Of a DNA stretch of 30,339 nt, positions 1 through 30,339 are shown in pieces. The translations under genes and the position numbers were made by a program. The DNA lies in IMG/VR virus record IMGVR_UViG_3300045988_111924, positions 1 to 30,339 of that record, one strand, 5' to 3'. The notes under the pieces were generated by a model. The model saw nothing but the letters and a program-made list of their open reading frames with translations. It searched no databases and was not told where the DNA came from. Source of the DNA: a virus. The number at the start of each line of letters is the position of its first letter. Position 1 is the stretch's first letter.

Positions 1-85
1 AAATCTCCACTATTTAACTTTACATCTGCATATGTTTGAGCAGAACCTATAATACTACAAAGAGGTACACCATCTATATTAAGGG
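1..85. repeat. Terminal direct repeat copy 1 (identical to 30255..30339). It is either a circular-assembly overlap or a short terminal redundancy.
   Basis: Read directly. The first 85 bases (aaatctccactatttaac...ctatattaaggg) recur exactly as the last 85 bases of the window. Confidence 0.9.
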
Positions 86-365
86 ATAAATCACTAAGAT
101 CTGCGGTAAAACTAAGTACTGTTGATTTAGTACCAGATCCTCTACCCATCCAATCTCTTTGAATATCACTTATAGTTCCATCATAGTTACTAAATATATA
201 ACTGCAAGGATCAACTACTGTAGTTCCTTGTGGAACAGGATTAGCAACTGTAACTATTTGGGGATTACAAGGATTAATAGGCCAGACTTTGGTACTGCCA
301 ATATAAATAGCAGTACCTTGTCTGTCACCTACATAAAATGTTTTTAAACCATCTCTAATATTCAT
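1..365 (-). CDS. 5' (N-terminal) part of a wrap-around gene for a 373-aa tail protein with a C-terminal BspA/DUF285-like LRR domain. It continues at 30254 and runs down to 29498.
   Basis: ATG at 363-365 lies 1 nt after the fibre gene stop (367-369). The frame stays open to base 1. Via the 85-bp overlap, the phase (30256 mod 3 = 1) matches ORF 29498..30028, with no stop in 30029..30254. Confidence 0.75.
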   Translation of the reverse strand, partial: MNIRDGLKTFYVGDRQGTAIYIGSTKVWPINPCNPQIVTVANPVPQGTTVVDPCSYIFSNYDGTISDIQRDWMGRGSGTKSTVLSFTADLSDLSLNIDGVPLCSIIGSAQTYADVKLNSGD

Positions 366-366
366 A

Positions 367-2502
367 TTATTCTACAATTAAATATTGTGTATTAGGATCT
401 TTAGTTGATAAACCATCATACTCTGATTGAGTTAGAACAGTAATAGTATTTATTTGAGGTTGGGTTCCAGTTCCAGCTTCAATATAGTTTCCAGCAGGCT
501 GAATACCTAAATCTGATAAACTCTTATTGCCAGATAACTCAACAGAATTAATCTGAGGTTTATTTGTTAACTGAGTATAATCGGTAGTCCCTCCACTACC
601 AGATATTTCAAGATTACCTTCTCCTAAAATACTTTCACCATTAATAGTCTTTATATTAGTCCCAGAGACTAATTGCTCCTGATAACTATGATAACTAGTA
701 TCTGCTGATACTCCAGTTGGAGTAATAGTAGTTTGAACTACAGTATGATTAGCTGTAGTACTTTCAAAATGGAAAGTAGCTTGAATATTTTCTCCTGAAA
801 CAAAACATACTTCTGGAGCTGCTATATCACCATAACCTAGAATATTTACATAATAAAGCTCAAATGGTGTTTTATTAGCTATAGCATTCTTAACAGCAGC
901 GAAATCTCCAGAAAGATGAGTAGTGGAATTTATAAATAGAAATGGAATATTAGAGCCACTTTCAATTTCTATATTACCTTCTCCAAGTAAAGACTGACTA
1001 TTGATTGTTTTGATATTAGTTCCACTTACAAGTAAATCTTGTTTAGTAGCCATCTCTTTATCAAGAGCATCAATCTTGTTTCCATCTTCTTCTTGCTTTG
1101 TTTTAATAATTGATATGTCTGAAGTATTAGTTGCTACTTGAGTAGATAGAGATTCTACCACAGAAGAATCAGCTTTACCAGCAAGTTCTGTTTTTGTTGC
1201 ATAATCTCCTACAGGCTGTTTAGTAGCAAGCTGCTCATCAACATAAGTCTTATCTGCTTTACCTGCTAAATCTCCAGAAACCTCTGCTTCACTTACAAAG
1301 TTAGAATCATTAGTAAGCTCACTAATTTTAGTTGGAATATCACTCTTTAAAGCATAATCACCAACTGGTTGGTATCCAGATAAATCTACAGATAATTGGG
1401 ATTTATCTTCATTAAAAGCTAATGGAGCTTGTGGAGTAAATACACCTTGCTTAGTTGCAAGTTTCTCATCTACTTCATCTTTAGTATAACCTTTATTAGT
1501 AAGATCAACCTCAGTAACTTTAACAGTCATATTACCATTATTTACTAAGATTGCATTAATAACTACTAATACACCATTATCTTGGAAATAATAGCCATAT
1601 AAATCAATAGTTTCGGGATGCTCAATAGTTGCAACAGGAATAACTATAATATCACCTTTATATGTAATCTGGCAGAATAAATAGAAGTCCAGATTAGTTC
1701 TAATAAAGTCATAGATATGTTTCTGTCTTACAGGATCATTCTCATCTAAATTAAGTAAGAAATGATTCTCAAAAGCAGAGATTACATTATCTATAATAGA
1801 TATATTCTTTCCTGCTGTAAGCGTTCCTTGTTTTGAAGCTATCTCTTTATTAATAGCTGTATTTAAAGCATCAATTTCAGCTTTAGTATATTTATCTGCT
1901 AATTGTGCATATAGAGGACCATTAACAATACCAGCTTGATTAGTCTCTGTATTATATATTGGAAGTTCAACTGCTTCTCCAGTTTGATTACCAAATACAG
2001 GAGCTAAAGTAACTTTAGATGGGACTGATTGAATATTAATGGCAGGTACTATTGAAGCTGCTCCAGATAATTCAGTTCCATTTAAAGATGGTTTGTTACG
2101 AATAGTATTATAATCTGCAGAAATAGTATTCTCTTCAATTACTATACCGTCACCTTGAACGAGTGTATTTTGCTTTCCAGCAGTGGCTTCAGTAATCTCT
2201 GTAGTTACCTCTTCTTTAGTTGGATAGTCAGCTAGTTTCTCAGTAATCTGATTATCAACATCTTCAATAGAAGGAATTCCTAATTCTTTAGAAGGAATAT
2301 TTCCATTTAATTCAACCCCATTGATTTCAGGCTTAAATTGAAGATCTTGATAGTTACTTGATCCTAACTGAGAACCATCCATAACCTTAACTTCATCATC
2401 CTTGTCAATAACAATAACTTTAGTCACATTTGACTTATCTATTGTTTCGACTTCAAGGACATTAAGATAGGGAAGAATTGTCTTTTCAGTTTCGTTTGCC
2501 AT
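367..2502 (-). CDS. Tail fibre protein (711 aa) with repeated NKPxINGxELxG and IKTINGxSxLGEGNIEI motifs
   Basis: Intact ORF with ATG start and TAA stop. Internal repeats and fibre-like composition. Follows an intrinsic terminator and precedes the LRR tail protein. Contains no Trp codon. Confidence 0.7.
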   Translation of the reverse strand: MANETEKTILPYLNVLEVETIDKSNVTKVIVIDKDDEVKVMDGSQLGSSNYQDLQFKPEINGVELNGNIPSKELGIPSIEDVDNQITEKLADYPTKEEVTTEITEATAGKQNTLVQGDGIVIEENTISADYNTIRNKPSLNGTELSGAASIVPAINIQSVPSKVTLAPVFGNQTGEAVELPIYNTETNQAGIVNGPLYAQLADKYTKAEIDALNTAINKEIASKQGTLTAGKNISIIDNVISAFENHFLLNLDENDPVRQKHIYDFIRTNLDFYLFCQITYKGDIIVIPVATIEHPETIDLYGYYFQDNGVLVVINAILVNNGNMTVKVTEVDLTNKGYTKDEVDEKLATKQGVFTPQAPLAFNEDKSQLSVDLSGYQPVGDYALKSDIPTKISELTNDSNFVSEAEVSGDLAGKADKTYVDEQLATKQPVGDYATKTELAGKADSSVVESLSTQVATNTSDISIIKTKQEEDGNKIDALDKEMATKQDLLVSGTNIKTINSQSLLGEGNIEIESGSNIPFLFINSTTHLSGDFAAVKNAIANKTPFELYYVNILGYGDIAAPEVCFVSGENIQATFHFESTTANHTVVQTTITPTGVSADTSYHSYQEQLVSGTNIKTINGESILGEGNLEISGSGGTTDYTQLTNKPQINSVELSGNKSLSDLGIQPAGNYIEAGTGTQPQINTITVLTQSEYDGLSTKDPNTQYLIVE

Positions 2503-2556
2503 ATTATTTTTCTATAAAATATAAATTATTCATTATGTGGTATATAAACAAAATAA

Positions 2557-2593: not shown

Positions 2594-3118
2594 TTAAGCA
2601 CCTACAACGCTTTGGATAGCTTCTGCAGATAACTCATAAGGATAAGAATCTGAATCTGTTGAAAGTGTCAGAGTATAAGCATTCTGATCACCTTTAGCAG
2701 TACCAGTAACACCCGTACCAGCGGAAGCGCTTACATAATCATCTTTACCTAAGAACCAATACTTACCATTGCTATCTTCAACAACAACTGCAAGCTGACC
2801 AATTGATAAAGCTGCAATCTCTACTCGTTTTGCTGTTTCCATCTTTGTAAATACAAGAGCAAGCTCATTACTTACATAATTAACACCAGCACTTTCATCT
2901 ACATTTAAAGTTGAGGTTAGAGAACCAGTAGCCTTTCTAAATTGGTAGTTATACCATTTAGCTGAAGACTCAAGAGTAATAGCTGAAATCATATTGCTCT
3001 CAGGATCAACCGTTACACTTTTAACATCTGCATACTGGGTAATCCATACCTGTTTGATCCCACCCAATGAAGGTTGGCAATCAAGTGTGATTCCTGCGAT
3101 AGTTATTAAACAAGCCAT
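2594..3118 (-). CDS. Major tail (tube) protein candidate (174 aa)
   Basis: Intact ORF directly downstream of the capsid gene and followed by a strong terminator, which suggests a highly expressed structural gene. Size and beta-rich composition fit siphovirus tube proteins. All 3 Trp are TGG. A head-decoration role is not excluded. Confidence 0.45.
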   Translation of the reverse strand: MACLITIAGITLDCQPSLGGIKQVWITQYADVKSVTVDPESNMISAITLESSAKWYNYQFRKATGSLTSTLNVDESAGVNYVSNELALVFTKMETAKRVEIAALSIGQLAVVVEDSNGKYWFLGKDDYVSASAGTGVTGTAKGDQNAYTLTLSTDSDSYPYELSAEAIQSVVGA

Positions 3119-3158
3119 AATTTCAATATCATTTAGAAGTTAATAAAATCTATTGAAA

Positions 3159-4064
3159 TTAAGCCTTGGCACCTAATACTACTTCGTCAGGGAAAGCAAC
3201 TTGTACACCAGCGTTAAATTCAATAGCTAATCTGAACTCGCGGAAATCCTGTGAATACCACAATTCGAATTTCTCTTCATCGTTCATCATATCTACACCA
3301 TAGAAGAAGTTCTTGTCTAACTGACCAGCAACAATCTTATCAGTTCCATTAAGACCATTAACAGCAATAACCTTAACCTGTGAACCAGGAAGATAAATCT
3401 CACCATCAAGGCTCTCTCCGCTATAGTGGAAATAGTTCTTCTCAACAAGTTCATTTACGAACTTACGGAACATATCGGCACCAACAAGAATCGAAGCACC
3501 ATCAAGAACCTTCTCAGGAATTGCATTATAAACTGCCATAATGTCAGTATAGGCAGATGTTCCAGCAATTGTTACATCTACAGTACCAGCATCATCAGCA
3601 AGAATCTTAAGCAGACCATCAAAATACTTCAAGTTATTAGTTTCTGAAGCCGTATCACCCTGCCAGATAGCTACCTCAATAGCCTCTTTTACGTTCTCTA
3701 CAACAGCATTTACGAAATCCTCTTCAAAAGGAAGAGTCTTCTGACCAGCGGCTACCTTAACTGCATACTGAGTCCAGTATTTCAGCATAGCCTTATCGCA
3801 ATATGCCATATTAATCTTAATATTACCAGTCTTAAGAATTCTCTGAGAAAGAGTCTGAGTTCCAGACTCATCCCAACCACAAGTAAGACCATCACCGAAC
3901 TGAACATCGGTAGATAACAGGTTAAGAGCAGCATCAGTTTTAATATCTGTCTGAAGATTAAATAAACTTGCACTCTTAGCTTTTAAAACCGCTTCCTTAA
4001 TAAGAGGGAGACGTCTTTGCTCCACATAAGCAGGAAGCGTTGTCATAATTGGTGAATTTGCCAT
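3159..4064 (-). CDS. Major capsid protein, probably HK97 fold (301 aa)
   Basis: Intact ORF downstream of the protease and scaffold genes. Size and sequence character are typical of phage major capsid proteins. All 4 Trp are TGG and there is no TGA. Confidence 0.75.
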   Translation of the reverse strand: MANSPIMTTLPAYVEQRRLPLIKEAVLKAKSASLFNLQTDIKTDAALNLLSTDVQFGDGLTCGWDESGTQTLSQRILKTGNIKINMAYCDKAMLKYWTQYAVKVAAGQKTLPFEEDFVNAVVENVKEAIEVAIWQGDTASETNNLKYFDGLLKILADDAGTVDVTIAGTSAYTDIMAVYNAIPEKVLDGASILVGADMFRKFVNELVEKNYFHYSGESLDGEIYLPGSQVKVIAVNGLNGTDKIVAGQLDKNFFYGVDMMNDEEKFELWYSQDFREFRLAIEFNAGVQVAFPDEVVLGAKA

Positions 4065-4065
4065 T

Positions 4066-4635
4066 TTATAAAATTTTAAATAATAATTGTTTGTGAGTTT
4101 TTGATCTTCCAGCTATTACATTATCAATAGCTTTCGGATTAAATCCATCTAGTTTTAATTCGTTTCTCGTTTTATACATTTTAATTAATTTTCCGTCTAA
4201 AGAATAACAACCAATGTTATAGTCTTTATGCCAATTAGAGCCAACTCTTGATTTAGAGATTTGAGCTTTAGATACTTCTGTATGATGTCTGCCATAAAAA
4301 GGATTTTTCTCTCCAGAGTGATTATGACCTTGTCTTTTTCCTCCTTTTAATCCTCCAGGTTCTTGATTCATACATAACGGATCTGTTTTTCATAAATCTC
4401 CAACTCAATAAGCTTCCCTTTCAGCATTTTCTTCTTTAGAAGCATTCAGTTCAATTATTGTTTTACGGTATGTACCAACTGTTCCGTATTTATCGAAAAA
4501 AGATTTACAAAACCGACCACTGCCTCTATAAGCCTTATCATTTTCTGGCTTATAATTAACTGTTCGTTTTCCTATATAATATTTGCCAATATGTTTTGGA
4601 TGTAGGAAGTCGATTTTATAAATATAATGATACAT
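4066..4635 (-). CDS. GIY-YIG homing endonuclease (189 aa) inserted between the scaffold and capsid genes
   Basis: Track ORFs 4405..4635 and 4066..4371 share a frame and are joined by TGA at 4405-4407 and 4390-4392. N-terminus reads YIYKI...YYIGK (GIY-YIG). Read as EREAY-W-VGDL-W-K, the first TGA sits at the Trp position of the E-x-x-x-W-I motif known from I-TevI-type enzymes. A NUMOD3-like GEKNPFYGRHHT follows downstream. Confidence 0.8.
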
Positions 4636-5240
4636 TAACCAATAAAGTTTTTAAGCTTTCTATCTATTTCTGCTATCCCACTTATAGGAGCAGTTGTTTT
4701 ATTTTCAAGTGTTTCCTCTGCTGAAAAAGCAGCACTCATCTTACTCATTTTTTCTACAGTCTTTTCAGTAGCTTCTGATTTTCCTTCAAGTTCTGCTACT
4801 TTCTTAACAAGCTTATCAACAATGTCATAAAGCTCATTAATTTCGCGATGAATAGCGTCGATTGCATCAGTCTCAGTTTCTTTAACACCGTCTGTTTCAA
4901 CAGCAGGATCAGTAACTTCCTCAGCTTTTACTTTCTTAGTTCCACAAGCAGCATCAACCTCAACAGTTCTCATACCCTCTTCAGGATCAACCTCAGCTTT
5001 AGGATCAGTAATGGACTCTACTTTACCGTCTTTAACAACAATCGTTTTGCCATCTTCGGTAATATACTCACCATCAGCAGCAGGTGCATATTCGCCATTT
5101 TCATCAGCTACATAAACATCCATACCTTCTCTCAGATCCTCCTCTGAATCCCAAGTAAGCACAGCCTTGTCAGTTTTAACATCACTGAACTTTGCAAGCA
5201 TCTTAGCTAACTCAAGTTTAATTTTTGTGAATTTACTCAT
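4635..5240 (-). CDS. Scaffolding protein candidate (201 aa, acidic)
   Basis: Intact ORF between the protease and capsid genes. Acidic, with a coiled-coil-like C-terminus. Its stop overlaps the next ATG (TAATG). Confidence 0.5.
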   Translation of the reverse strand: MSKFTKIKLELAKMLAKFSDVKTDKAVLTWDSEEDLREGMDVYVADENGEYAPAADGEYITEDGKTIVVKDGKVESITDPKAEVDPEEGMRTVEVDAACGTKKVKAEEVTDPAVETDGVKETETDAIDAIHREINELYDIVDKLVKKVAELEGKSEATEKTVEKMSKMSAAFSAEETLENKTTAPISGIAEIDRKLKNFIG

Positions 5241-5246
5241 AATTAA

Positions 5247-5840
5247 TTAATGTTTAACTCTTTTTATTTTTCTCAACATTTTTTGAATCTCTTTAAGTTC
5301 CTCATATTCATCAGATTGTCTTTCTAAAGTAAACAATCCCTCAATAGAGAACCCTTTAAACTTGCCAGCTTTAATTGCATCCCATATAACAGGATTATTT
5401 ACTTTATAAGTAGCAAATAATGAACCATCTGGGCAATCAGTAAATTCAACTGGATTAATTCCTCTATCTATATCTTTAATATATAGTTCTTGAAGAATTA
5501 TTCCAGGGATTACTGAATCTTCCAAATGTTCAATATTTACATCAGTAGTTCTCTTATCATACATCATTTTTTCAGCCATTAAACGGAGAGTTTCTTTATC
5601 ATATTGAATATAATATTCTCCGTTTTTACTATCCCGTCTAAATATAGGTATATCACATACCATTAAACAAGAAGTAACTATATGTTTTTCTTCATCCATC
5701 GAGAACTTCTGAGATTCCCCAAAAGCAAGCCAATTAACTTGGGTTGCAGGTTTACTGGTCAATGCTACGAACTCTATTCCATCACAATCATCGGCAATAA
5801 TTGCTTGATATAATGGAAGATCATTATACATTTTTTCCAT
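5247..5840 (-). CDS. Prohead protease candidate, XkdF-like (197 aa)
   Basis: Intact ORF. The N-terminal segment IEFVALTSKPATQVNWLAF resembles the conserved start of XkdF-type phage proteases. Position is upstream of scaffold and capsid genes. Confidence 0.55.
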   Translation of the reverse strand: MEKMYNDLPLYQAIIADDCDGIEFVALTSKPATQVNWLAFGESQKFSMDEEKHIVTSCLMVCDIPIFRRDSKNGEYYIQYDKETLRLMAEKMMYDKRTTDVNIEHLEDSVIPGIILQELYIKDIDRGINPVEFTDCPDGSLFATYKVNNPVIWDAIKAGKFKGFSIEGLFTLERQSDEYEELKEIQKMLRKIKRVKH

Positions 5841-5919
5841 TTTTTATTAATATATAAGCTATTTTAAAAATGTAATATTGTTACAATCTTTTATTTTTAT
5901 ATATTTATATACTATCAAA

Positions 5920-5967
5920 TGTCAAGTTTTTACTCAAATTTGTATCTAAGATAAATAAATTTTGACA
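5920..5967. promoter_or_regulatory. Conserved quasi-palindromic intergenic element, copy A
   Basis: Sequence is tgtcaagtttttactcaaatttgtatctaagataaataaattttgaca. Arms are TGTCAAGTTTTTAC and TAAATTTTGACA. It lies between the tape-measure stop (6035) and the protease start (5840). A left-arm-like half copy (tgtcagaaattttactcac) is at 6015-6033. Confidence 0.7.
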
Positions 5968-5970
5968 TAG

Positions 5971-6014
5971 CACTACTATATAAGCACTGATAATCAGCAA
6001 CTTACATAGTAGTG
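5971..6014 (-). other. Compound stem-loop just downstream of the tape-measure stop
   Basis: Perfect 9-bp inverted repeat, cactactat (5971-5979) and atagtagtg (6006-6014). It encloses an inner ctga-taa-tcag hairpin. There is no clear U-tract. Confidence 0.4.
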
Positions 6015-6034
6015 TGTCAGAAATTTTACTCACT

Positions 6035-8803
6035 TTAGAAACTTGCATTTGATTCTGTAACTGCAACTTTAGTTTGAGCATTAGTAATATCACTCTCAAC
6101 TACATAGCATTTAACAGGTTCATTTAATAAATCAGTCTCTTTATCACCAAGTAAGTTTCGAGTATATTCTACAGGAGCAGTGTTTAAAGCAGCAGGTGCT
6201 GCAACAGATGCAGAAGCAGAAGATGCAGATGCTCCACTAGTTTCATCTACCTCTCAAATCTTTTTAACATTTGCAATACCTGCAACTACTGCGGCTGCAG
6301 CTGCAGCAATACCTAAAGCAGGACCTACAATAGGAATTCCTGCCATAGCAGAGTATGCGCTATTTGCTGCTGAATAAGTGTCAATTAAAGCTTGTGCAGT
6401 AGCAAATCCTTTTCCAACTTTACTCTCTTCTCCCCAAATACTTGCCATACTTCCTGCAATGCTTGAAGCTACAGATAAAGTACCTTGTAAAGCTTGCTGC
6501 CTTGCTTTTTGAAGATTTTGATAAGCCTGAGTATTTGCCTGTTCATTAGCTAATTGAGCATCTGATAAGGCCATATTATTCTCAGTAAGAGTTCTTTGAA
6601 TTTCCTCTTTTTGTTCAGCAGTTAATTGTTCATTCATTAATTGCTGACTTAATAAGGCATTCTCTTGCTCTATTCTACCTTGAGTTAATGAGAGTAAGTT
6701 GTTATTGTATTCAATTTGAGCATTGTATTGATTCTCTAAGTCCTCTCTACTCTGATATGTAAATTTATAACCAGTCCCTTCATAATCTCCAGCTAATCCA
6801 AATGCTTTCGATATACCTTGAGTATAAGTAGTCTGAAAGGTCTGCTCTCTTGGCTCTCTCAAATTACTTGTAGAAGATAAATCTCTAATCCTTTTTAATT
6901 CAGACTGTAGATCATTCCAAGCTTTATCTGCATCTGCTTTACGCTTAGCTTCTTCATCAGCTCTAGCTTTATCTCTAATCTTTTTAAGTTCTTCCTGATG
7001 CCAAGCTTCTACCTCTTCAATTCCCCTATTATACTTAATAGCTAATGCTAATAGTCTAATATATTCATCTTCAAGTTCATCTACTGGGTCTTTATCCTCT
7101 AATCTCTTTTGAAGCCATTCATCAAATTCATTTATTACCTTCTTAGCTTCAGTAGTGTTCTTTGTAATAGTTGGAATATTAAAGAACCCACCATACTTTT
7201 TATTAGTATCTGCTACATCCTCAAATAGCTTTTTAAGCCTTTTCTCAATGTCTTTATTTAAATCATCCAACTGTTTATAAGTATTCTCTTTATTTTGCTT
7301 TGTATACTCATAAATTGTATTTGAATAATCTTTTCAGAACATTGCTGTAGCTTTAAAAGCCTGCCAAGCAGATACCTCTCCAAAACTTGTATCAGAAATT
7401 TGATTCTCCAGTTCAGTACGTTTGTTTAAATACTCCTCATAAAGCTTAATTGCAGCCTGTTCAATAGCCTGAGCTTTTGCTCTTGCAGTTAATGCTTCTA
7501 CATAATTACCAGTATTATTTACAAACGCATCTTCTGCAGTCTTTACATCAGTGATATTTAAACCAGTCTCTTTAATCTTATCTGAATATTGCTCTATAAA
7601 CTTACGCTTAGCATCTGCAGAATCTCCAACCCTTTCGTAAGCTATTTGGAGCTCTCTAAAGATAGCTATAGATTTAGAAGCAATCTGATTAGTAGTATCT
7701 GTAATAGACTTTCTAAATTCAGCAGCCTCCTTTTCAGCTGATTTTATTGAGGATATATACTCTATTATCTTATTAATAGCTACTCCAATAGCTGTAGCTA
7801 ATGCAATTCATACAGTTACATTACCAATAGTTTTAAGTGCAGTTTTAACTTTACCTACTCCAGAAGCAGCTTGTTCTGAAGCTTCAGCCATTGCTTTCTG
7901 AGCCTCTGCTCCTTTTCGCAAAGTTGGAATGCCTTTTTCTACATTTTCCTTTAATTCAGCAAGATCTACACCTAAACGTTTAGCAGCTTTCTGCATTCTC
8001 TCTGCTAGAGTTCCAGTCTCTTTTGCTGTTTCCTTTAAAAATTCAGCAACTGTAGTAAATGTAGGTTTTACTTCTTTAAAAGACTTTTTTGCAGTTTCTC
8101 CTAATTTACCTATAATTGGAATCGTATTAGATACACTCTTATTAGAAGCAGATATTTCAGCAGGAGTTCCAAGCATACCCTGAACCATTCCACCTCTGAG
8201 ATTAATATTGGTGCCTTCTAAATCCTTGACTACTTTAGAGATATTACCTAATTCAGTTCCAACATTACCAACAGATGTGCCAATGCCATTAAGCTTAGAT
8301 GTATCAATCTGATTAAGGTTTTTGGCAGCATTATTCAATCCTGTATTAAATGGGGAAATAAAATCAGTTAATTTCTTAAACCAATTACCTAAAGTGGGTA
8401 ATTCTTCTAATAAATCTTTTATACCTCCCACACCTTGAACTAAAGCAATAGTAGATTGTAACTTAACCATTACTTTATTTAAATCTTCTGATTCTTTCCC
8501 AAATAAAGTAATAGCAGCAGTTGCAGCACCATATCCACTAGCTAAGCCAGTGGATATTTTAGCTACACTTTCAAATCTTTGAGCAGTAGTTCTCGAAGAT
8601 CTTGCTATCTGCTCATTAATTTTATTGAACTCTGATTGTCTTTTACCTAGTAATGCAAGAGTTTCATTATATTCCTTAGTACCAATCTCTAAATCATTCA
8701 GAGAACTAGATAATGCGTCAATATCTTTCTTTAAAGAGTTTATTGACTTATTACTTGACTTAGTATCAATACTAATTACTTTTTTAATTTCTGTTTGTGC
8801 CAT
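6035..8803 (-). CDS. Tape-measure-like protein (922 aa)
   Basis: Track ORFs 7808..8803 and 6254..7270 and the unlisted stretches 7271..7807 and 6035..6253 form one frame. The only interruptions are TGA at 7808, 7334 and 6254. I checked every codon in 7337..7807 and found no TAA or TAG. Long coiled-coil sequence with Ala/Gly-rich hydrophobic segments, typical of tape-measure proteins. TAA stop at 6035. Confidence 0.7.
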
Positions 8804-12243: not shown

Positions 12244-12245
12244 AA

Positions 12246-14426: not shown

Positions 14427-14428
14427 TT

Positions 14429-17753: not shown

Positions 17754-17842
17754 AATTAGCGCTTTTTAGTATAAGTAAATATAGAAATTAACTTTCCATT
17801 CTTGTAGTGATAAATAACTTCTGTTTCCATAAAATATAATTT

Positions 17843-19904: not shown

Positions 19905-19915
19905 AATTAAATATA

Positions 19916-20095
19916 TTAGAAAGAAATACCTAAACCAAAAAACCAAGAGGATTTCTTTACCTTTTCATTGGTTTCAATCTCCTTTAATGCCTCATTACAT
20001 AATTCTTGAGCTTTCTCAATAGAACCATCTTCAGTAATCTTACCATCTAATATATCAAGAAAATATTCAAGTGCTTCAATTTGTTTAGTTTTCAT
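19916..20095 (-). CDS. Hypothetical small protein (59 aa), first gene of the minus-strand early block
   Basis: ATG at 20093-20095, TAA at 19916. It lies about 46 nt downstream of the minus-strand promoter motif. It falls just under the apparent length cut-off of the track. Confidence 0.4.
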   Translation of the reverse strand: MKTKQIEALEYFLDILDGKITEDGSIEKAQELCNEALKEIETNEKVKKSSWFFGLGISF

Positions 20096-20393
20096 AATTT
20101 ATAAAGTTTAATTGTTAATATTATGTCTTACTTTCATAGTACAAATATACAACAAAAAATTCCAATTTCCAAATTTTTTAGGTATTATTTTTATTATTTT
20201 CAAAAAAATATTACTATTTGTATTTTTTAGTGCTAAAAATTTTGTAGATTAAAAAATTATTCTTATATTTGTAGTGTGATAATAAAAATACAATTTTAAA
20301 TAAAAACAATGCTTAAATTATTTGGATTTTAAATAAAAATGTTGTATATTTGTACTATCAAAATAGATTATTATAATTAAAATTTTAAAGACT
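20096..20393. promoter_or_regulatory. Divergent early control region with three Bacteroides-type promoter motifs
   Basis: Plus strand: TTTG (20241-20244), 19 nt, TATATTTG (20264-20271). Plus strand: TTTG (20321-20324), 20 nt, TATATTTG (20345-20352). Minus strand: TTTG (complement of 20170-20173), 20 nt, TATATTTG (complement of 20142-20149). The 18-mer gttgtatatttgtactat occurs at 20341-20358 and inverted at 20136-20153. The same sequences can also be read as TTGnnn-N16/17-TATATT, a sigma70-like pattern. Confidence 0.55.
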
Positions 20394-20549
20394 ATGAAAA
20401 ATTCGATTAAAAACAATGGAACAATTATTATTGAAGATAATACAATTAAGAGCACTATGGAGAATTCAATTCCTTGTTCTGATGAACAATTTGCTAACTT
20501 ATTAGCTAACTCTCCTACAATTGCAGCTTATTTTAGTAAAAATAAGTAA
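20394..20549 (+). CDS. Hypothetical small protein (51 aa)
   Basis: ATG at 20394, TAA at 20547-20549. Followed by an intrinsic terminator. Confidence 0.4.
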   Translation: MKNSIKNNGTIIIEDNTIKSTMENSIPCSDEQFANLLANSPTIAAYFSKNK

Positions 20550-20563
20550 TTCTACTACTTCTA

Positions 20564-20589
20564 GGCAGGTGAAAGTCCTGCCACTTTTT
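20564..20589 (+). terminator. Rho-independent terminator
   Basis: Sequence is ggcagg-tgaaagt-cctgcc, followed by acttttt. Confidence 0.6.
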
Positions 20590-20599
20590 AATATTAAGG

Positions 20600-20648
20600 T
20601 GTCAACTTTTTACTCACCTGATGTGTATAGATAAAATAAAAATAGACA
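20600..20648. promoter_or_regulatory. Conserved quasi-palindromic intergenic element, copy C
   Basis: Sequence is tgtcaactttttactcacctgatgtgtatagataaaataaaaatagaca. It ends 26 nt upstream of the helicase ATG. Confidence 0.7.
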
Positions 20649-20673
20649 ATTAATAACCAAAATTATTACAACT

Positions 20674-22392: not shown

Positions 22393-22394
22393 TA

Positions 22395-22444
22395 TGTCTA
22401 TTTTTATTTTTATCTATATACATTAGTTGAGTAAAAAATAGACA
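22395..22444. promoter_or_regulatory. Conserved quasi-palindromic intergenic element, copy D (inverted relative to A, B, C and E)
   Basis: Sequence is tgtctatttttatttttatctatatacattagttgagtaaaaaatagaca. Its reverse complement matches copy C at 44 of 49 positions plus one 1-nt indel. It begins 3 nt after the helicase stop. Confidence 0.7.
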
Positions 22445-22464
22445 TTTATTAAAATATTTTAATT

Positions 22465-22626
22465 ATGGAAAATGATATTAAAGAAACAATTAAACAAACA
22501 GAAGAGTATATTAAAGAGTTAGATAGATGAATTCTCGAATGTAAAGAGGCTACTAAAAGATTTGGTGATATTATAGACAAAGTATTAAAAAATAAAGATT
22601 ATATGTTTATTTCTAAATTTGATTAA
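22465..22626 (+). CDS. Hypothetical small protein (53 aa)
   Basis: ATG at 22465, TAA at 22624. One in-frame TGA at 22528 (ELDR-W-ILECK). Under the standard code it would be only 21 aa. Confidence 0.4.
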
Positions 22627-22628
22627 TT

Positions 22629-22769
22629 ATGGATGATCATTTATTTAAAAAGCTTGAAGAACTAGAATACAGAATAGTTCAACTAGAAAACCAGAATAGA
22701 GGTTTAGTTTGGGAAGAAGTAGAAGAAATACCAAAACCAGAAATTACTAATGCAACATATACTGATTAA
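22629..22769 (+). CDS. Hypothetical small protein (46 aa)
   Basis: ATG at 22629, 2 nt after the previous stop. TAA at 22767. Coiled-coil-like sequence. Confidence 0.35.
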   Translation: MDDHLFKKLEELEYRIVQLENQNRGLVWEEVEEIPKPEITNATYTD

Positions 22770-22770
22770 T

Positions 22771-22911
22771 ATGAAATACCAAACCTATAAAGTATGTATA
22801 AATGGAGTGCATTATGTATATGTAATACCAGAAAATAGTAAGTTTTTAGTAGACTTACAAACAGGAGATTTAATACCTAAAGATGAGAAATTATTTGAGA
22901 TAATGGAATAA
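22771..22911 (+). CDS. Hypothetical small protein (46 aa)
   Basis: ATG at 22771, 1 nt after the previous stop. TAA at 22909. Followed by a terminator. Confidence 0.35.
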   Translation: MKYQTYKVCINGVHYVYVIPENSKFLVDLQTGDLIPKDEKLFEIME

Positions 22912-22915
22912 ACAA

Positions 22916-22940
22916 AAAGGAGGGTTATTTGCCCTCCTTT
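22916..22940. terminator. Bidirectional intrinsic terminator between convergent gene blocks
   Basis: Sequence is aaaggaggg-ttatttg-ccctccttt, with an A-run on the left and ttctttttt on the right. It lies between the plus-strand stop at 22911 and the minus-strand stop at 22950. Confidence 0.75.
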
Positions 22941-22949
22941 TCTTTTTTA

Positions 22950-23540
22950 TTAAACATATCTTCACTTGAATCCTTTTACTTTATATCCTTCTCTAATTGC
23001 TTTAGAAATAGAATTTTTATGAACTCCAACATCTAAAGAAGTACTAACAGCACAATCATATTCTTTAATAAGAACATCATCTTTATATGCACCTACTTTT
23101 TTGGCTCTAGGATTATTGCCAAAAGAATTATTTAAATAGCTCAAATCTCTTCCTTTCTGGCTATCACTCATCTTTTTCCTAGTTTCTTCTGATAGATGTC
23201 TTCCAATACTTTTAGCTCTTATCTTATCTTTTCTTTCTTGAGTAAATATAATTCCACAAGTACCGTCTCCTCCATCAGTAGCATTATACCCATATTTTGG
23301 ATTTCTAGTATTATACTTATAAATCAGAATCTTTTCTAAAGTCTTAGCACAAGCTTCTGGAAGATTATCTCTAATTATAATATGCTCAAAATTATCTCAA
23401 CCATATTTTTTAATTGCTTTATAAAATGGCTGCTTTTTGTAACCTGTACCATTAGCTCATCTTATTTCAGGTTTCTTACAGGTAATACCAAAATATAATT
23501 TATTATTAGTTTTATTCTTATGATAGTAAAGAGAATACAT
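22950..23540 (-). CDS. GIY-YIG homing endonuclease (196 aa), second copy of this class
   Basis: Track ORF 22962..23171 is only the C-terminal fragment. The frame is open from the ATG at 23538-23540 through TGA at 23457, 23397 and 22962 to TAA at 22950. Reads YYHKNKTNNKLYFGIT...EIR-W-ANGTGYKKQPFYKAIKKYG-W-DNFEH...GFK-W-RYV. The KYGWDNF and RW positions are conserved Trp in this family. Confidence 0.8.
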
Positions 23541-23986
23541 TATACTAATGTGAAATATTGGTTCTTTAAATTATTAGGATTATATGAAATATGCCATCAA
23601 GAAGGCACTCCTTTTTTAGGTTTTTCTCTTATTATTTGTGAGAATTTAATAGTTGGAATTAATTGCTCAATAAACTTATCAAATTCTTCCATTCTTTTAT
23701 TTGCAGGTTTTAAATCAGCAGCAAATCCTCATAAATGATCCGAGGTTTTAGATCCACCAACTGCTTTATTTAAAAGATTACTTCTATAACCTGATGTTAC
23801 TATTATAGCAGGATTACCGAGATTGTTGTCATTGCAATATTTTGCCCACTTTTCTCTCATAGTATCCAATAAATTATCAACTAATATATTCAGGTTTGAA
23901 ATTGTTTTTTCATCTGGAGTATTATCAATGCCTTTTTGTTCAGCAGTTGTAGATCTTGTTAATTCGCTAATAGTAAAATATTTCAT
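23540..23986 (-). CDS. Endolysin, Peptidase_M15-type (148 aa)
   Basis: Track ORF 23729..23986 continues through TGA at 23729 and 23597 to TAA at 23540. The SxHxxGxAxD zinc-peptidase motif reads S-D-H-L-(TGA)-G-F-A-A-D. The start overlaps the holin stop. Confidence 0.75.
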
Positions 23987-24147
23987 TATTTAATAATATC
24001 TTTAAGCATAGTATAACGGTAAAATAAATGACATCCTGCACCAAGTGCTATGAGTACTAATGTAATCCAAAATGGAATTACTTTTACAATTAAAAAGACT
24101 AAGATTATAATTACTATTGCTATTAAATATTTCATCCAATATTTCAT
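23986..24147 (-). CDS. Holin candidate (53 aa, two hydrophobic helices)
   Basis: ATG at 24145-24147. Sequence is MKYWMKYLIAIVIIILVFLIVKVIPFWITLVLIALGAGCHLFYRYTMLKDIIK. The TAA stop overlaps the endolysin ATG (TAATG). Confidence 0.5.
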   Translation of the reverse strand: MKYWMKYLIAIVIIILVFLIVKVIPFWITLVLIALGAGCHLFYRYTMLKDIIK

Positions 24148-24150
24148 AAC

Positions 24151-24804
24151 TTATTTATTTAAAATTATACTTATTTTAATTCCTGCATCTCTTAGTTTTA
24201 CTCAAGTATCAACTGGCATCTCATTATCACAATAAGATAATCCTAAAATTCCAATATCTCTATCTTCTGATTTTAAATAGAATATTGCAATCTTATTAAC
24301 CTCATTAGATTTAAATGCATAATACATTCTTCTATCTAATTCCTTTATATCTTCAACATCTCCAAATCATCCTCCTTTTTTAGATGTTTCCAATATAAAT
24401 AAATAATCAGATAATAGGAAGTCTTTATAGTGACTTGAAACTGGAGCAACTCCAGGTTCTGTTTCTTCACTATTCATAATTCCATAAGTGAATGGTAATC
24501 CTCCTAATCCTGAAGTGCCATTATGATACTCAATAACTCAAGCTCTATCTGCATTCGTATCATTTAAAAGATCTTTAAGGATATATCTAACCTTAAGATC
24601 CGCTTCTTGTCGTATTACTTGATTAGTATTATGAACTGTTTCTATATAACTTACAACTTTATCATATATTATTCCTGGATTAGTACTTATAATTATTACA
24701 TAAGAAATAAATATAAATCCAAATCCGCCTTTAATTATTTTTCACAGTCCATATTTATCTACTCATTCTAATACCTTTCCAAACCAGTTTAATTTATTTT
24801 CCAT
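24151..24804 (-). CDS. Membrane-anchored protein of unknown function (217 aa), upstream of the holin
   Basis: Absent from the standard-code track. ATG at 24802-24804, TAA at 24151. Five in-frame TGA at 24763, 24742, 24538, 24367 and 24202. N-terminal hydrophobic helix GGFGFIFISYVIIIS. Confidence 0.6.
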
Positions 24805-25230: not shown

Positions 25231-25911
25231 TTACTTACTCTTTTTATTGTTATCACTTGAAGGGAAATCATAAGCTCTTTGCAGAGGACCTTCACAAGAA
25301 TTATATCTCCAACCTTTACCTCTAGCTCCACCTAACCAAATAGTACAAGATGAACTTGAATACATATTTGGATACATATCTTTAAGAGGTTTATAAGAAT
25401 ACAATTCAGGAAAATCATTATAATATGTAATTACCCAATTTTGCAATCTAGTTTTAAAGAAATCTGCTTTATCTCTATAATACTTCTTAATAAGATTAAC
25501 TTGATTAATATCAGAAGTTAAATCTTTCTCATCATCAGTCCTCATAACCCCAAAGTTACTAAGCTTAAATGAGATGGGTATAGTAATCTCACTTAATACT
25601 TGATAAAGTAAATAAGGCTGAATATAGTAATCTAGCAATTCTTTATATCTATGATTTTCTGGGTCATCTATTGAAGTAGGATCATAAATAGGAGGTTCTA
25701 TTGGATGAACTGGTTTATTTGGATCTTTTCAATCAATTACTAATTTCTGAATCTTTTCTAAGAGCTTAGTTCCAATTAATGACTGAAGCTCAATATCTTG
25801 TGCACTAAAAATTGCTGATTGCAAGTACTTTCCCGATACATTATTATCTAGACTAGAATTAGATTTAATATAGTCTTCGGATATAAGCATTACGTTTCTA
25901 TAACTATTCAT
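25231..25911 (-). CDS. Head-tail connector or head-completion candidate (226 aa)
   Basis: Track ORFs 25729..25911 and 25231..25638 share a frame and are joined through TGA at 25729 (KLVID-W-KDPNKP). Position is directly downstream of the portal gene. The function call is weak. Confidence 0.4.
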
Positions 25912-25975: not shown

Positions 25976-27067
25976 TTATTCAACATTTTCTGCATTATCT
26001 GACATTCCTTTTGGAGTTAAACTAAATGGTTCAATAGTAATGCTATTCTTAATACCGAAGATTTTATCAAATGAATCACAAATTTCTGATTGTATTGGGC
26101 GTACAAAAGTACGATTATATAGCTTAAATGCTTCATTAAACTCATTTTCATTAAATCCTGAGCTATAGTTTAAACCGAACAACGAAGGATTAGCTCTGAA
26201 GGCACAGAATATTTGATCTCTGGTTCTCTCAGATAATGATTGATATTTCTCATCAAAATCATCAGAATCTAATCTTTCAATAGTAGTCTTATTTGCCTCA
26301 TCTGCATTATATGAAATCAATATTCTGCCAGCATTCTGATAACCAGAGAACTTCTCATTAATATTCCTCTCAATCTCCTCTCTAATTTCATCTGTAGGTT
26401 CCCCATTATTAAAGTTAATAATAAGATTACCCATAAATCCATTATTGATGTTATTTAAATGGAATTCATTAATATTTTTCTCAGTTTCACAAGATAAAAT
26501 AGCAGCTCCATAAACAGGAATAGGATATACTCCTCTTGTTATATAACCTTTATTATAAAATATACTAGCTGGATTTTCATCCCCAGCTCCAAATTTTGGA
26601 TATTTTATAGCTTTTACAGACCAAGCTGTCCAATCAGTTGCATAATATAATATATCATTCTTTTCGCTTGACCTTACATTCATAAAATCAATATGATATA
26701 TCTCTGCAACTCTTCCGAGCATATCTCTAATTACTTGGATAGCATAACCTCCAAATATCATCTTATCAATAGTGATTTTTCTCATTATATCAACTATTGT
26801 TTCACCTTTCTTGTTTACAACTACTTCAAATCCTGGAGCATTACATTTAACATCGTTACCAACAATAAAGTCAGCAGAACCATTAATAATGGATTGGAGA
26901 GTGGCAACATTTAAATATAAATCCCATAGATATAATGGATATTTGTTATCTTCTCCCCACATTATCATATCAGAACCTCTTTTCTTTGTTTCCGTTGGAA
27001 GAACGATGTTAGATTGAATGAAAGGATCTATGGCTGACATCATTATTTTACTTTTATTTTCGCTCAT
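25976..27067 (-). CDS. Portal protein (363 aa)
   Basis: Intact ORF. The N-terminal W-x-x-DN-x-YP-x-x-L-x-x-L...S-x-x-L-x-SII-x-G pattern and the overall length resemble PBSX/HK97-type portals. All 4 Trp are TGG. Confidence 0.65.
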   Translation of the reverse strand: MSENKSKIMMSAIDPFIQSNIVLPTETKKRGSDMIMWGEDNKYPLYLWDLYLNVATLQSIINGSADFIVGNDVKCNAPGFEVVVNKKGETIVDIMRKITIDKMIFGGYAIQVIRDMLGRVAEIYHIDFMNVRSSEKNDILYYATDWTAWSVKAIKYPKFGAGDENPASIFYNKGYITRGVYPIPVYGAAILSCETEKNINEFHLNNINNGFMGNLIINFNNGEPTDEIREEIERNINEKFSGYQNAGRILISYNADEANKTTIERLDSDDFDEKYQSLSERTRDQIFCAFRANPSLFGLNYSSGFNENEFNEAFKLYNRTFVRPIQSEICDSFDKIFGIKNSITIEPFSLTPKGMSDNAENVE

Positions 27068-27548: not shown

Positions 27549-27597
27549 TGTCAAGTTTTTACTCACTCAAAGTACTAAGAAAAAATAAAAACTGACA
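27549..27597. promoter_or_regulatory. Conserved quasi-palindromic intergenic element, copy E
   Basis: Sequence is tgtcaagtttttactcactcaaagtactaagaaaaaataaaaactgaca. It begins directly after the stop of the LRR gene at 27599. Confidence 0.7.
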
Positions 27598-27598
27598 A

Positions 27599-28576
27599 TT
27601 AGTTTGAACTTGCTAAAGTTCAGTTTTTAGATGCAGCTAATGATTTCTGTTCCTCAGTAAGTGCATTATAAACTGCAGAATTAAATGTAATAGTTTGTGT
27701 AGAAATTCCAGTTAAATCTGACACTGCTTCTAGAACATTATCAACTGAACTAGACGTTAATGAAGGAAGATTAGCTAAAGTAAATGACTTACTTGTAACT
27801 ACACCTCCGAATTCTGTTAATTCAGTTAGCCAGTATGAACTTCCAAATGTATAGCCAAAAGCTGTGGAGTCTAATGACTTATCAGGAGATATAGTTATTT
27901 TGCCTAAAGATTTTAATTTTTTACAATATGTAAACATCTGATTTGTTTGACCAGTACAGTTTGGAGCGTAAATATCTGGAATGGTTTCAATTGATTCACA
28001 ATAATTGAAAATGCCAGAAAGAGAAGTTGCTATAGAAAAATCTATATTTGGTAAAGTAAGCAAACTACTACAGTTACTAAAAGTTTGAAAATATTGAGAT
28101 AATTTTAAATTTGCATCTATTTCAACTAACTTAGTGCAGTTATAGAAAAGTTGGGAACCTTGATTACTGGTGCTATTTAATAAGGTTATTTTATGTATAC
28201 CATTAGCGGTGGAAATGGTATAAAACATAGTATTCATATTTTTGCCTTGGCAATCAAATGTGAATTCATCGTTTTGAGACCATTCACATCCGTAGAAAAA
28301 ATGATCATAAGAATATTTATTTAGTATAAAATAATCCTCCAATTTTAATTCCCCACCATCCCTAAATTTATGCATATTAGAAAATCCTAATGATAATGGA
28401 ATAATACTTAAATCAATTTTACCTCCACCACCTCCAGATATTTCTCCAATCTTTTCTGCATAACTTCTAAAGGTATCTGAATCTGATACAGCAACACCTT
28501 TAGCTACAATAGCATCTTTAATGGCACTCTTAGTACCTTCAAGATACGTTAATTTATCAGAAATTGTATTTGCCAT
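27599..28576 (-). CDS. BspA/DUF285-like leucine-rich-repeat tail protein (325 aa), receptor-binding candidate
   Basis: Track ORF 27620..28576 continues through TGA at 27620 to TAA at 27599 (...EEQKSLAASKN-W-TLASSN). Repeats of the type FxxCxxLxxIP...MFxxCxxL. The C-terminus is paralogous to 29498..30028. Confidence 0.65.
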
Positions 28577-29256: not shown

Positions 29257-29258
29257 AA

Positions 29259-29495
29259 TTATCTAACTTTTATTGATTCCTCATACTCTTTAGAAGCTTT
29301 AATAGCTAATTCTTTATATTCAGCATCCTTATCTAAAGAGACTTCTGATAGATGCTCTAAATCGCAACTTAAAGGACAGATACATTCAGTAAATGAACTG
29401 TATAATTTAATATCCATTCCTTCTTTATAGTTAGTAAGTATATAACCTTCTTCTGGACTAACTACTTTATATTTTTCTTTAATTTCAATTTTCAT
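29259..29495 (-). CDS. Hypothetical small protein (78 aa)
   Basis: I trimmed the track ORF to the ATG at 29493-29495 (MKIEIKEKY...), 2 nt after the upstream stop at 29498. Confidence 0.4.
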   Translation of the reverse strand: MKIEIKEKYKVVSPEEGYILTNYKEGMDIKLYSSFTECICPLSCDLEHLSEVSLDKDAEYKELAIKASKEYEESIKVR

Positions 29496-29497
29496 AA

Positions 29498-30339
29498 TTA
29501 TGCAACTCGATTTATGCTCCAATTCTTTGAAGCGATTAATGATTTCTGTTCATCTGTTAATTTATCATATGCAGTAGATTTGAATGATATACTTGTATTA
29601 GAACTTACTGCTGTGCCAATAGATTCTGCTATAGTTTGTAATGAATCTGTAGATAAATTTGGAGATTGTGCAAAATAAAGAATTCCTCCTTTAGTTAAAC
29701 TCTCTCCTAATCCATTTAAAGCTCCTACAGTTACTAATTCTGGACAATTTGCAGCAAAACTAGTACAATCTGTAACAAGATGGCAATCTATTTCTGGTGT
29801 AGCTGTTAATCTACTACAAGTACTAAACATATAGCTTATATCTGTAATTCCAGTAAAGGTAAAATTACTTGGAATAGTTGTTAGATATAATGCTCTATGA
29901 AACATATGATTACAATCTCCTTTAAATGGAATATTAATCGTTATATTATCTATATTAGTAGCTCCATCATCTGTCTCTGCAAATGCCCATTTTGGATCTA
30001 CTAATACAAGATTTTGAAAATTATTCATTACAGAGAAATCATTATTATCTATTTTTACTCCAATAAATAAATAATTTGCACTTACTTCTTTAGTAGTTGT
30101 AGGTATTTTAACATTAGATAAAGTAGCACTATGTATTGTTTGACCCCAAAATTGAGATTCACTAGACCATCTTCCATATGCTTCATTAAGATTAGTAATC
30201 TCCTGGTTATTTAGATCAAAATGAGATGTTTCAAAAAACCCTCCTTTTCTACTTAAATCTCCACTATTTAACTTTACATCTGCATATGTTTGAGCAGAAC
30301 CTATAATACTACAAAGAGGTACACCATCTATATTAAGGG
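29498..30339 (-). CDS. 3' (C-terminal) part of the wrap-around BspA/DUF285-like LRR tail protein. Its N-terminus is at 1..365.
   Basis: The frame of ORF 29498..30028 stays open upstream to the window end, with no stop in 30029..30339. The repeat motif MFHRALYLTTIP...ISYMFSTCSRLTATP is DUF285-like. Ends ...EQKSLIASKNWSINRVA, with the Trp encoded by TGG at 29519-29521. Confidence 0.7.
   Translation of the reverse strand, partial: LNIDGVPLCSIIGSAQTYADVKLNSGDLSRKGGFFETSHFDLNNQEITNLNEAYGRWSSESQFWGQTIHSATLSNVKIPTTTKEVSANYLFIGVKIDNNDFSVMNNFQNLVLVDPKWAFAETDDGATNIDNITINIPFKGDCNHMFHRALYLTTIPSNFTFTGITDISYMFSTCSRLTATPEIDCHLVTDCTSFAANCPELVTVGALNGLGESLTKGGILYFAQSPNLSTDSLQTIAESIGTAVSSNTSISFKSTAYDKLTDEQKSLIASKNWSINRVA
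30255..30339. repeat. Terminal direct repeat copy 2 (identical to 1..85)
   Basis: Read directly. Exact 85/85 identity with the window start. Confidence 0.9.

Follow-up and report, generated by a model that had tools for sequence, protein, structure and literature searches.

Reading of TGA as tryptophan in a complete ~30-kb phage genome from a family that carries no tRNA gene

The virus record IMGVR_UViG_3300045988_111924 of IMG/VR, analysed here over positions 1 to 30,339 (the whole stretch of 30,339 nucleotides, hereafter the window), places TGA codons inside its genes, and it raises the question of how these codons are translated by a phage that shows no decoding machinery of its own. A preliminary description had seen neither a suppressor or Trp(UCA) tRNA nor a release-factor gene, and had offered three ways out: a host that natively uses genetic code table 4, a suppressor supplied by the host or by a co-infecting element, or some other mechanism. 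We judge these to be the right set of options.

Reading TGA as a sense codon, as that description had proposed, raised the share of the window covered by open reading frames (ORFs) of at least 100 amino acids (aa) from 80% to 93%, and extended the longest of them from 715, 586 and 365 aa to 1149, 928 and 731 aa. The 42 in-frame TGA codons span positions 4390 to 27622 and, beside about 80 TGG codons, make up about one third of the tryptophan codons of the genome; TGA was never found as a stop (TAA 33, TAG 4, TGA 0). We compared the window with 42 related loci obtained by a portal-anchored scan of IMG/VR, and a gain in coding density under code 4 was seen in 40 of these, the exceptions being the two most distant (L041 and L042). 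Across 740 alignments, TGA codons of the window lay opposite TGA 318 times, opposite TGG 144 times and opposite a glycine codon once, while TGA codons of the relatives lay opposite a tryptophan of the window 96 times. Among the 53 tryptophan columns with enough relatives, 32 were polymorphic for TGA and TGG. The portal gene (25976-27067, minus strand) showed directly that the two codons are interchangeable, as its Trp36 is TGG in the window and TGA in close relatives, including one that is 99% identical. A TGA codon of the endolysin gene also lay opposite tryptophan in the endolysins of standard-code Bacteroides phages when the alignment was read ungapped. These comparisons indicate that TGA is tryptophan and that the code of the phage is table 4.

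The same alignments exclude table 25, under which TGA would be glycine and the phage one of Absconditabacteria or Gracilibacteria, because TGA lay opposite TGG or tryptophan and only once opposite glycine (1 alignment, against 144 with TGG). Recoding of TAG in the window was rejected since sense TAG brought no gain in ORFs, and selenocysteine was not plausible at 42 sites that align to tryptophan. The base following TGA was G in 17 cases, A in 14, T in 8 and C in 2, which is near background, and with the +4 position unbiased we rejected context-dependent readthrough and mRNA editing. Two TGA codons lie close to the end of their genes, at codon 319 of 325 for a leucine-rich repeat (LRR) protein and at codon 193 of 196 for the second GIY-YIG endonuclease. 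Both were considered as true stops and rejected as such; the one in the LRR protein matches a TGG tryptophan in the homologous C-terminal motif of a paralogue (two sequences read by eye).

Bases 1-85 of the window were 100% identical to bases 30255-30339 in a self-comparison, and this terminal direct repeat leaves a unique length of 30,254 bp. The window is a complete, circularly closed phage assembly, so that no tRNA gene can sit outside it. ARAGORN found no tRNA or transfer-messenger RNA (tmRNA) gene within it in linear, circular or intron mode. ARAGORN in a sensitive mode had been named earlier as a check to be made, and at a lowered threshold it returned mismatched candidates only and no credible UCA tRNA: the three with a tca anticodon lay inside coding sequence, and the five intergenic ones had other anticodons. 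A 'tRNA-SeC(tca)' called at 25694-25791 in the relaxed/mitochondrial mode was rejected, being mismatched and antisense within a gene. The Rfam models for tRNA, tRNA-Sec and tmRNA gave no match at E ≤ 1 over the whole window, and none at E ≤ 10 in the three largest intergenic regions. Allowing one mismatch, we found a single site of the T-arm pattern GGTTCRANNCC where 2.6 were expected, and this site lies in coding sequence, in agreement with the earlier view that no T-arm or cloverleaf-like segment is present. Non-coding DNA amounts to 1,387 nt in total (4.6% of the genome) at 12-34% G+C, and the short, AT-rich segments first listed as non-coding agree with our gene map.

Searches at the protein level were likewise negative. 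Neither Pfam nor PHROGs matched a release factor, an aminoacyl-tRNA synthetase or a tRNA- or RNA-modifying family among the 39 ORFs of at least 46 aa, and neither matched a deaminase, methyltransferase or other RNA-modifying domain, release factor 1 (RF1) or tryptophanyl-tRNA synthetase (TrpRS) in any ORF. A six-frame translation contained the release-factor motif GGQ at a single place, which lies outside the genes in non-coding DNA. The original observation that the genome has no suppressor tRNA and no release-factor gene was thus borne out by ARAGORN, Rfam, Pfam and PHROGs. No tRNA was found in relatives across 80 loci (42 portal-anchored and 38 tail-anchored), which, with the two anchor sets combined, cover at least 14 relatives from end to end. 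As the genome is complete and these relatives are all tRNA-free over their whole length, the absence of a tRNA is real and family-wide, and not an artefact of assembly or detection.

TGA is spread unevenly among the genes. In TGA:TGG ratios summed over relatives, the codon was nearly missing family-wide from the genes for the helicase (1:110 in 24 relatives; 0 TGA and 5 TGG in this genome), the major capsid protein (1:106), the tube-like protein (2:84) and the holin (0:67; 0 TGA in this genome), and it was not seen in the scaffold (0:18) or the 79-aa early protein (0:18). It was frequent in tail, lysis, regulatory and homing-endonuclease genes, with ratios of 76:16 for the LRR protein, 20:1 for the tail fibre, 15:4 for a helix-turn-helix (HTH)/sigma-like protein, 46:15 for the GIY-YIG endonuclease at 22950-23540, 106:92 for a 217-aa membrane protein, 48:35 for a 110-aa membrane protein (5:1 in this genome) and 46:61 for the endolysin. 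TGA and TGG are not neutral alternatives to each other. Because the helicase and holin genes have a G+C content of only 24-26%, base composition cannot account for their avoidance of TGA. Such a pattern is to be expected where UGA cannot be decoded at the outset, or where decoding it always carries a cost, but not in a host that has tRNA-Trp(UCA) and lacks release factor 2 (RF2).

In the window itself, the head and tube module (2594-5840, minus strand; tube-like, major capsid, scaffold-like and prohead protease genes) is nearly free of TGA, and the tail genes (6035-14426, minus strand) carry many, with three in the tape measure, eight in a 1146-aa tail protein and three in a 726-aa tail protein. 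In the lysis cassette (23540-24804, minus strand) there are five in the 217-aa membrane protein, none in the 53-aa holin-like protein and two in the Peptidase_M15_3 endolysin. We also observed that TGA counts run inverse to the expected virion copy number (capsid, scaffold and tube 0, portal 0-1, tape measure 3, 1146-aa protein 8), a trend in genes 2594-14426 and 25976-27067 that would suit TGA as a throttle on stoichiometry if decoding were partial. Three homing endonucleases lie within the 30 kb, all on the minus strand (4066-4635, 18144-18710 and 22950-23540; two GIY-YIG/NUMOD3 and one HNH/NUMOD), and they are TGA-rich, at 53-75% of tryptophan codons family-wide. The first of them, a GIY-YIG/NUMOD3 enzyme with two TGA codons, interrupts the otherwise TGA-poor head module.

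Several signals in the genome point to Bacteroidota, and not to a table-4 lineage, as the host. The endolysin, a Peptidase_M15_3 protein (61.4 bits) in a holin-endolysin cassette, had as its best 30 matches among 50,697 cultured phage records only Bacteroides phages (tblastn, 43-51% identity), and it aligned at 54-56% identity with the endolysins of the B. fragilis phages BF3-TP1 and B124-14. A Shine-Dalgarno core was found upstream of 2 of the 38 genes. Homologues of the helicase, at 44-49% identity, lie in integrated elements that have Arm-DNA-bind_5/Phage_int_SAM_5 integrases and BACON-domain neighbours, and also in a Hymenobacter chromosome. Residues 986-1043 of the 1146-aa tail protein (8803-12243, minus strand) gave a weak viral BACON match (BACON_2, E = 0.004, below the Pfam cut-off), which is a faint extra hint of a Bacteroidota host.

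The divergent early control region (20097-20393) bears on the same question. Promoters of Bacteroides follow a consensus of TTTG near -33 and TAnnTTTG near -7, and a phage of Bacteroidota would be expected to have such promoters and to lack Shine-Dalgarno sites. At 14% G+C, the control region holds three Bacteroidota-type promoters of the form TTTG-N19-20-TATATTTG, one leftward (20142-20173, minus strand) and two rightward (20241-20271 and 20321-20352, plus strand). The motif TTTG-N19-21-TAnnTTTG occurred at three sites against 1.2 expected window-wide, every one of them inside this region, and the arrangement is kept in relatives as TATATTTG or TATCTTTG, the variable positions changing and TTTG remaining constant. 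The Bacteroides-type motifs reported previously for the early control region are therefore present there, and only there. Since moderate sigma-70 promoters (TTGgAa-N17-TATAtT) can be made out at the same sites, the promoters alone are only suggestive, and are supportive rather than decisive. The endolysin, the scarcity of Shine-Dalgarno sites and the helicase homologues strengthen the conflict, already pointed out in the preliminary description, between sense TGA without a tRNA and Bacteroides-type signals. We infer from these indirect signals that the host probably uses the standard code.

The early genes themselves called for a refinement of the initial statement that sense TGA occurs in both early and late genes. 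TGA does appear early, from codon 25 of the third leftward gene, but the promoter-adjacent genes are free of it. These are, on the leftward side (19665-20095, minus strand), a 59-aa ORF (19916-20095) and the 79-aa membrane protein (19665-19904), and on the rightward side (20394-22392, plus strand) a 51-aa ORF (20394-20549) and the 572-aa helicase-like protein of superfamily 2 (SF2; 20674-22392). The helicase and the 79-aa gene were TGA-free or nearly so across all relatives compared. The leftward genes that follow (17843-19665, minus strand) need TGA decoding, with one codon in the 144-aa gene (codon 25), two in the 102-aa gene, one in the 85-aa gene, one in the HNH homing endonuclease and five in the 110-aa membrane protein. 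Downstream of the helicase lie three small distal ORFs (22465-22911, plus strand), of which orf54 (22465-22626; 53 aa) has a family-conserved TGA tryptophan codon at 22528-22530, and those of 46 aa (22629-22769) and 53 aa (22750-22911) have none. The 572-aa protein was considered as a translation factor and rejected, since its predicted structure (predicted local distance difference test score, pLDDT, 83; Foldseek) has an ordinary SF2 helicase fold. The 85-aa protein matched HTH_50, and sigma-70 region 4 below the Pfam cut-offs; together with the 102-aa protein (18692-19241, minus strand; both with TGA) it might form a split phage sigma-like factor acting on hairpin elements that contain TTGACA.

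The explanation to which we give first place, though tentatively and at less than an even chance, is that the host tRNA-Trp(CCA) reads UGA after a putative phage factor has removed the competition of RF2. Its three inferred parts are a standard-code host, tRNA-Trp(CCA) as the decoder and the neutralisation of RF2. The host tRNA would read UGA via a C34-A mismatch, efficiently once RF2 had stopped competing, and the relief from RF2 would be provided by a putative phage product, either a TGA-free immediate-early protein or a protein delivered with the virion. Genes needed before the switch (the helicase) and genes of high output (capsid, scaffold and tube) would then avoid TGA, as would the holin, presumably since its timing matters. 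In the tail and lysis genes, and likewise in the regulatory and homing-endonuclease genes, the TGA codons would delay or throttle output. Decoding by tRNA-Trp(CCA) is favoured because tryptophan alone appears to be inserted, and because of precedents among E. coli, code-4 bacteria and phage codes. In E. coli with attenuated RF2, the native tRNA-Trp(CCA) supplies about 80% of the residues at UGA (PMC11903333), and tRNA-Trp(UCA) is missing from two code-4 bacteria, Candidatus (Ca.) Stammera capleta and Fastidiosibacteraceae XS4. Phages that differ from their host in code show only TGA-to-Trp and TAG-to-Gln changes, both to near-cognate amino acids (Borges et al., bioRxiv 10.1101/2021.08.26.457843).

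Several observations weigh against this explanation. No candidate RF2 antagonist was found among the TGA-free early proteins, the largest of which is the SF2 helicase, and the remaining TGA-free candidates are of 46-79 aa with no detectable homology. The third leftward gene already has a TGA as its codon 25, so that any switch would have to be very early or constitutive, and the eight TGA codons of the 1146-aa ORF would require a high efficiency per codon. Ordinary near-cognate readthrough reaches only a few percent, and no +4 context bias favours readthrough here. The TGA-poor capsid, scaffold and tube genes have 38-40% G+C, against about 28% elsewhere, and a mosaic origin could account for part of the TGA pattern, although not for the helicase or the holin. 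Finally, the signals that place the host in Bacteroidota are all indirect.

It is possible, if somewhat doubtful, that the switch from UGA to tryptophan is imposed on a standard-code Bacteroidales host by a small phage protein, which would either remove RF2 competition or retune tRNA-Trp, the phage bringing no tRNA, release factor or synthetase of its own. The candidates may be the TGA-free ORFs at 19916-20095, 19665-19904, 20394-20549, 22629-22769 and 22750-22911, or a virion-delivered protein. If true, such a small-protein switch would represent a new class of phage-encoded genetic-code switch.

The decoder could instead act in trans, as a tryptophan-charged tRNA(UCA) from a resident prophage, a mobile element or a co-infecting code-4 phage (e.g. 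crAss-like), which we regard as unlikely but worth weighing. It would suit a phage that lacks decoding machinery, and Bacteroidota phages with suppressor tRNAs do exist (Borges preprint; Cook et al. 2024); the wider clade also uses codes 11, 15 and 4, and easy switching is what an external decoder would lead one to expect. However, so common a family would be severely constrained if it always had to rely on a second element, and the host DNA flanking related integrated elements held only tRNA-Thr, tRNA-Gly and tRNA-Arg. The avoidance of TGA in highly expressed genes would suit any weak decoder, and so does not discriminate.

A direct reprogramming of the host tRNA-Trp by the phage, leaving RF2 as it is, appears rather more unlikely still. 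The putative change could be C34-to-U editing, an altered modification of the anticodon loop or a weakening of the anticodon stem. TGA maps to tryptophan only, as this would predict, and in Blastocrithidia nonstop UGA is read efficiently by a tRNA-Trp(CCA) whose anticodon stem has only 4 bp, such a stem being present also in Fastidiosibacteraceae XS4 (cited in PMC13462651). The reading of UGA by tRNA-Trp in E. coli depends on the modification of A37, and the Borges preprint proposes that phages modify bacterial tRNAs. Against these precedents, Pfam and PHROGs detected no RNA-modifying domain in any ORF, and an active RF2 would still compete at 42 codons.

A native table-4 host is unlikely, and we allow it only a slight probability. 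Such a host would belong to Mycoplasmatales, to the gut Eggerthellaceae Equivita/Gorillivita (31-40% G+C) or to an undescribed lineage; a 2026 survey of table-4 lineages comprises Mycoplasmatales, several reduced-genome endosymbionts of insects and protists, two Eggerthellaceae genera and some Minisyncoccia, with no Bacteroidota among them. A phage without tRNA or release factor, in which TGA is never a stop and appears early in the leftward operon, would be at home in such a cell, and its 30% G+C is near that of the code-4 Eggerthellaceae of mammalian guts. The peptidoglycan endolysin, however, argues against the wall-less Mycoplasmatales. The gut Eggerthellaceae are the sole table-4 candidates with both a cell wall and a mammalian-gut habitat, but they match neither the initiation nor the promoter signals. 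The near absence of Shine-Dalgarno sites is not to be expected of an actinobacterial host, and the affinities of the endolysin and helicase are, like the promoters, of Bacteroidota type. In addition, the code-4 Eggerthellaceae are known from 34 metagenome-assembled genomes (MAGs) from the stool of diverse mammals including equids and primates, whereas the phage family is abundant in apparently human-gut collections. Across the family the helicase, capsid, tube and holin genes strongly avoid TGA while elsewhere the two tryptophan codons replace each other freely, and such gene-specific avoidance speaks against a host of any kind that reads TGA without restriction.

A non-canonical suppressor RNA of the phage that tRNA finders miss is highly improbable, for although Borges et al. 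offer it as a cause of low tRNA detection and a conserved, repeated intergenic hairpin of about 50 nt is present, the non-coding DNA comes to only 1,387 nt at 12-34% G+C, the largest segments gave nothing tRNA-like in Rfam even at E ≤ 10, the relaxed ARAGORN tca candidates are all mismatched and inside coding sequence, the hairpin loop carries TAC and not TCA, and the other structured elements resemble terminators.

The repeated hairpin, TGTCnnTTTTTATTT-(loop, conserved TAC)-GTGAGTAAAAAnTTGACA, is found at intergenic operon boundaries, at 14996-15040, 20607-20651 and 27556-27600 on the minus strand and 22394-22446 on the plus strand, with degenerate copies at about 5915-6034 (minus strand). 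Its pattern had four matches where none was expected, and shows syntenic conservation in 48 related loci; in most cases a terminator-like hairpin of higher G+C content comes after it. The element may serve in RNA processing or act as a late promoter or regulator site; as a tRNA surrogate it was rejected on account of its loop. The second-largest non-coding segment (14918-15182, 265 nt) contains one repeated hairpin and then a terminator-like hairpin, and the 194-nt segment at 5841-6034 contains a strong hairpin and the degenerate copies; neither gave a tRNA-like match. Strong G+C-rich hairpins with T runs, resembling intrinsic terminators, were observed in 2503-2593 (folding z-score -6.6) and 22912-22949, the latter hairpin (22915-22941) being bidirectional and closing converging plus- and minus-strand operons.

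The genome has 38 genes and about 30% G+C, and nearly all of its genes lie on the minus strand, the short plus-strand operon (20394-22911) diverging from the 298-nt control region. Recognisable products include the large terminase, portal, prohead protease, major capsid protein, a 922-aa tape measure and large tail proteins, besides the holin-like protein, the endolysin and the three homing endonucleases; no integrase was found in the window. The large terminase gene (15826-17073, minus strand) has one sense TGA at 16513-16515, and its best matches, in distant archaeal and Thermus phages, are uninformative on the host. A 373-aa LRR-like gene without TGA spans the circular junction (29498-30254 joined to 1-365, minus strand), and its C-terminus is paralogous to 27599-28576. 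The phage is a virulent, tailed phage from a very common family of about 30 kb, apparently of the human gut.

Megablast found no close relative among cultured phages. A capsid search gave 4,047 homologues at E ≤ 0.001, the best 120 of the 4,047 being 88-96% identical, and the close family was found in it solely as contigs of about 30 kb. A capsid scan of GTDB genomes returned only two distant MAG-binned phage contigs, at about 48% capsid identity, which are weak evidence on the host. One relative (L034/L078) lies in a contig of 148,631 bp (IMGVR_UViG_3300045988_175865), preceded by several extra, stacked tail-fibre genes rich in TGA. The 35 kb of this 148-kb IMG/VR contig that were examined hold phage genes only, and the contig is more likely to be a concatemer or an assembly of several strains than a jumbo phage or a host contig.

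The puzzle of code-4 phages without tRNAs is already documented and is not new here. TGA suppressor tRNAs were reported in 35% of code-4 phages (Borges et al., bioRxiv 10.1101/2021.08.26.457843) and in 11 of 73 (Cook et al. 2024), and amber suppressors in 13% of TAG-recoded genomes (Gulyaeva et al.). For the 65-85% of code-4 phages that have no detectable suppressor tRNA, it had been undecided whether incomplete genomes, missed tRNAs or a real mechanism was the cause. The present family is of value in this respect as it is small, complete and abundant, has a probably culturable host and lacks tRNAs for reasons other than artefact. With a complete 30-kb genome and a tRNA-free family, the search space for a phage switch narrows to a handful of small early genes, and since the likely hosts are culturable Bacteroidales, the decoding question is directly testable. 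A natural RF2 antagonist or a factor that reprograms tRNA-Trp, if found, would be useful for genetic-code engineering.

Among distant relatives, changes of code can be followed within one structural lineage. Two contigs with capsids 47-49% identical to that of the window and with the same gene order differ from it in code, one (L043, CAVEXR010000032.1) having 46% G+C and the standard code, the other (L044, CAVCAD010000156.1) having 30% G+C and recoded TAG, with no tRNA in the 16 kb examined of the latter; their MAG labels are 'Azospirillum sp. CAG:239' and 'Bacteroidaceae bacterium'. With the window, they show one structural lineage spanning codes 11, 15 and 4. A TAG-recoded prophage was also observed beside a tRNA-Thr at about 5900-21740 of a 132-kb contig (L047, ERZ28598220 scaffold_71); it has 13 TAG codons in its terminase and none in frame in its homologue of the 572-aa helicase, and the flanking host genes are standard-code.

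The closest phages by description are the small-genome, code-4 clades Garnet, Amethyst and Topaz of Borges et al., gut phages of standard-code hosts, which share with the window a low G+C content, a size of about 30 kb, association with the gut, TGA opposite tryptophan, recoding of lysis and tail genes, some early genes compatible with the standard code, Bacteroidota signals and a wider clade using codes 11 and 15. This complete genome differs from what is described for them in having no suppressor tRNA, RF1 or TrpRS. It also lacks recoding in the genes for the major capsid protein, scaffold, tube and holin, while in the account of Borges et al. recoding generally extends to structural and lysis genes. 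The Jade phages share the reassignment, and also a standard-code early gene set followed by a recoded lysis cassette. They carry upstream of that cassette, however, a code-change module of suppressor tRNA(UCA), TrpRS and RF1, none of which is present here, and they are of about 200 kb with predicted Firmicutes hosts, unlike this phage. Phages of Mycoplasma and Spiroplasma share the table-4 code of their hosts, with TGA as tryptophan, and need no suppressor tRNA; the window shows no similarity to them, has a peptidoglycan endolysin and avoids TGA in highly expressed genes.

Outside phages, Ca. Stammera capleta and XS4 read UGA as tryptophan with tRNA-Trp(CCA) alone, which shows that a UCA tRNA is not essential. 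These are cellular systems in which prfB is typically lost (34 of 49 Stammera genomes) and, in XS4, the tRNA-Trp has a 4-bp anticodon stem, whereas in the phage the change would be temporary and made on a host that keeps RF2. We know of no natural phage factor that attenuates RF2 in the manner proposed. The nearest counterpart is the E. coli strain with attenuated RF2 (the 'Ochre' precursor; PMC11903333), an engineered strain whose mechanism of UGA decoding is the same as the one that we propose for this phage.

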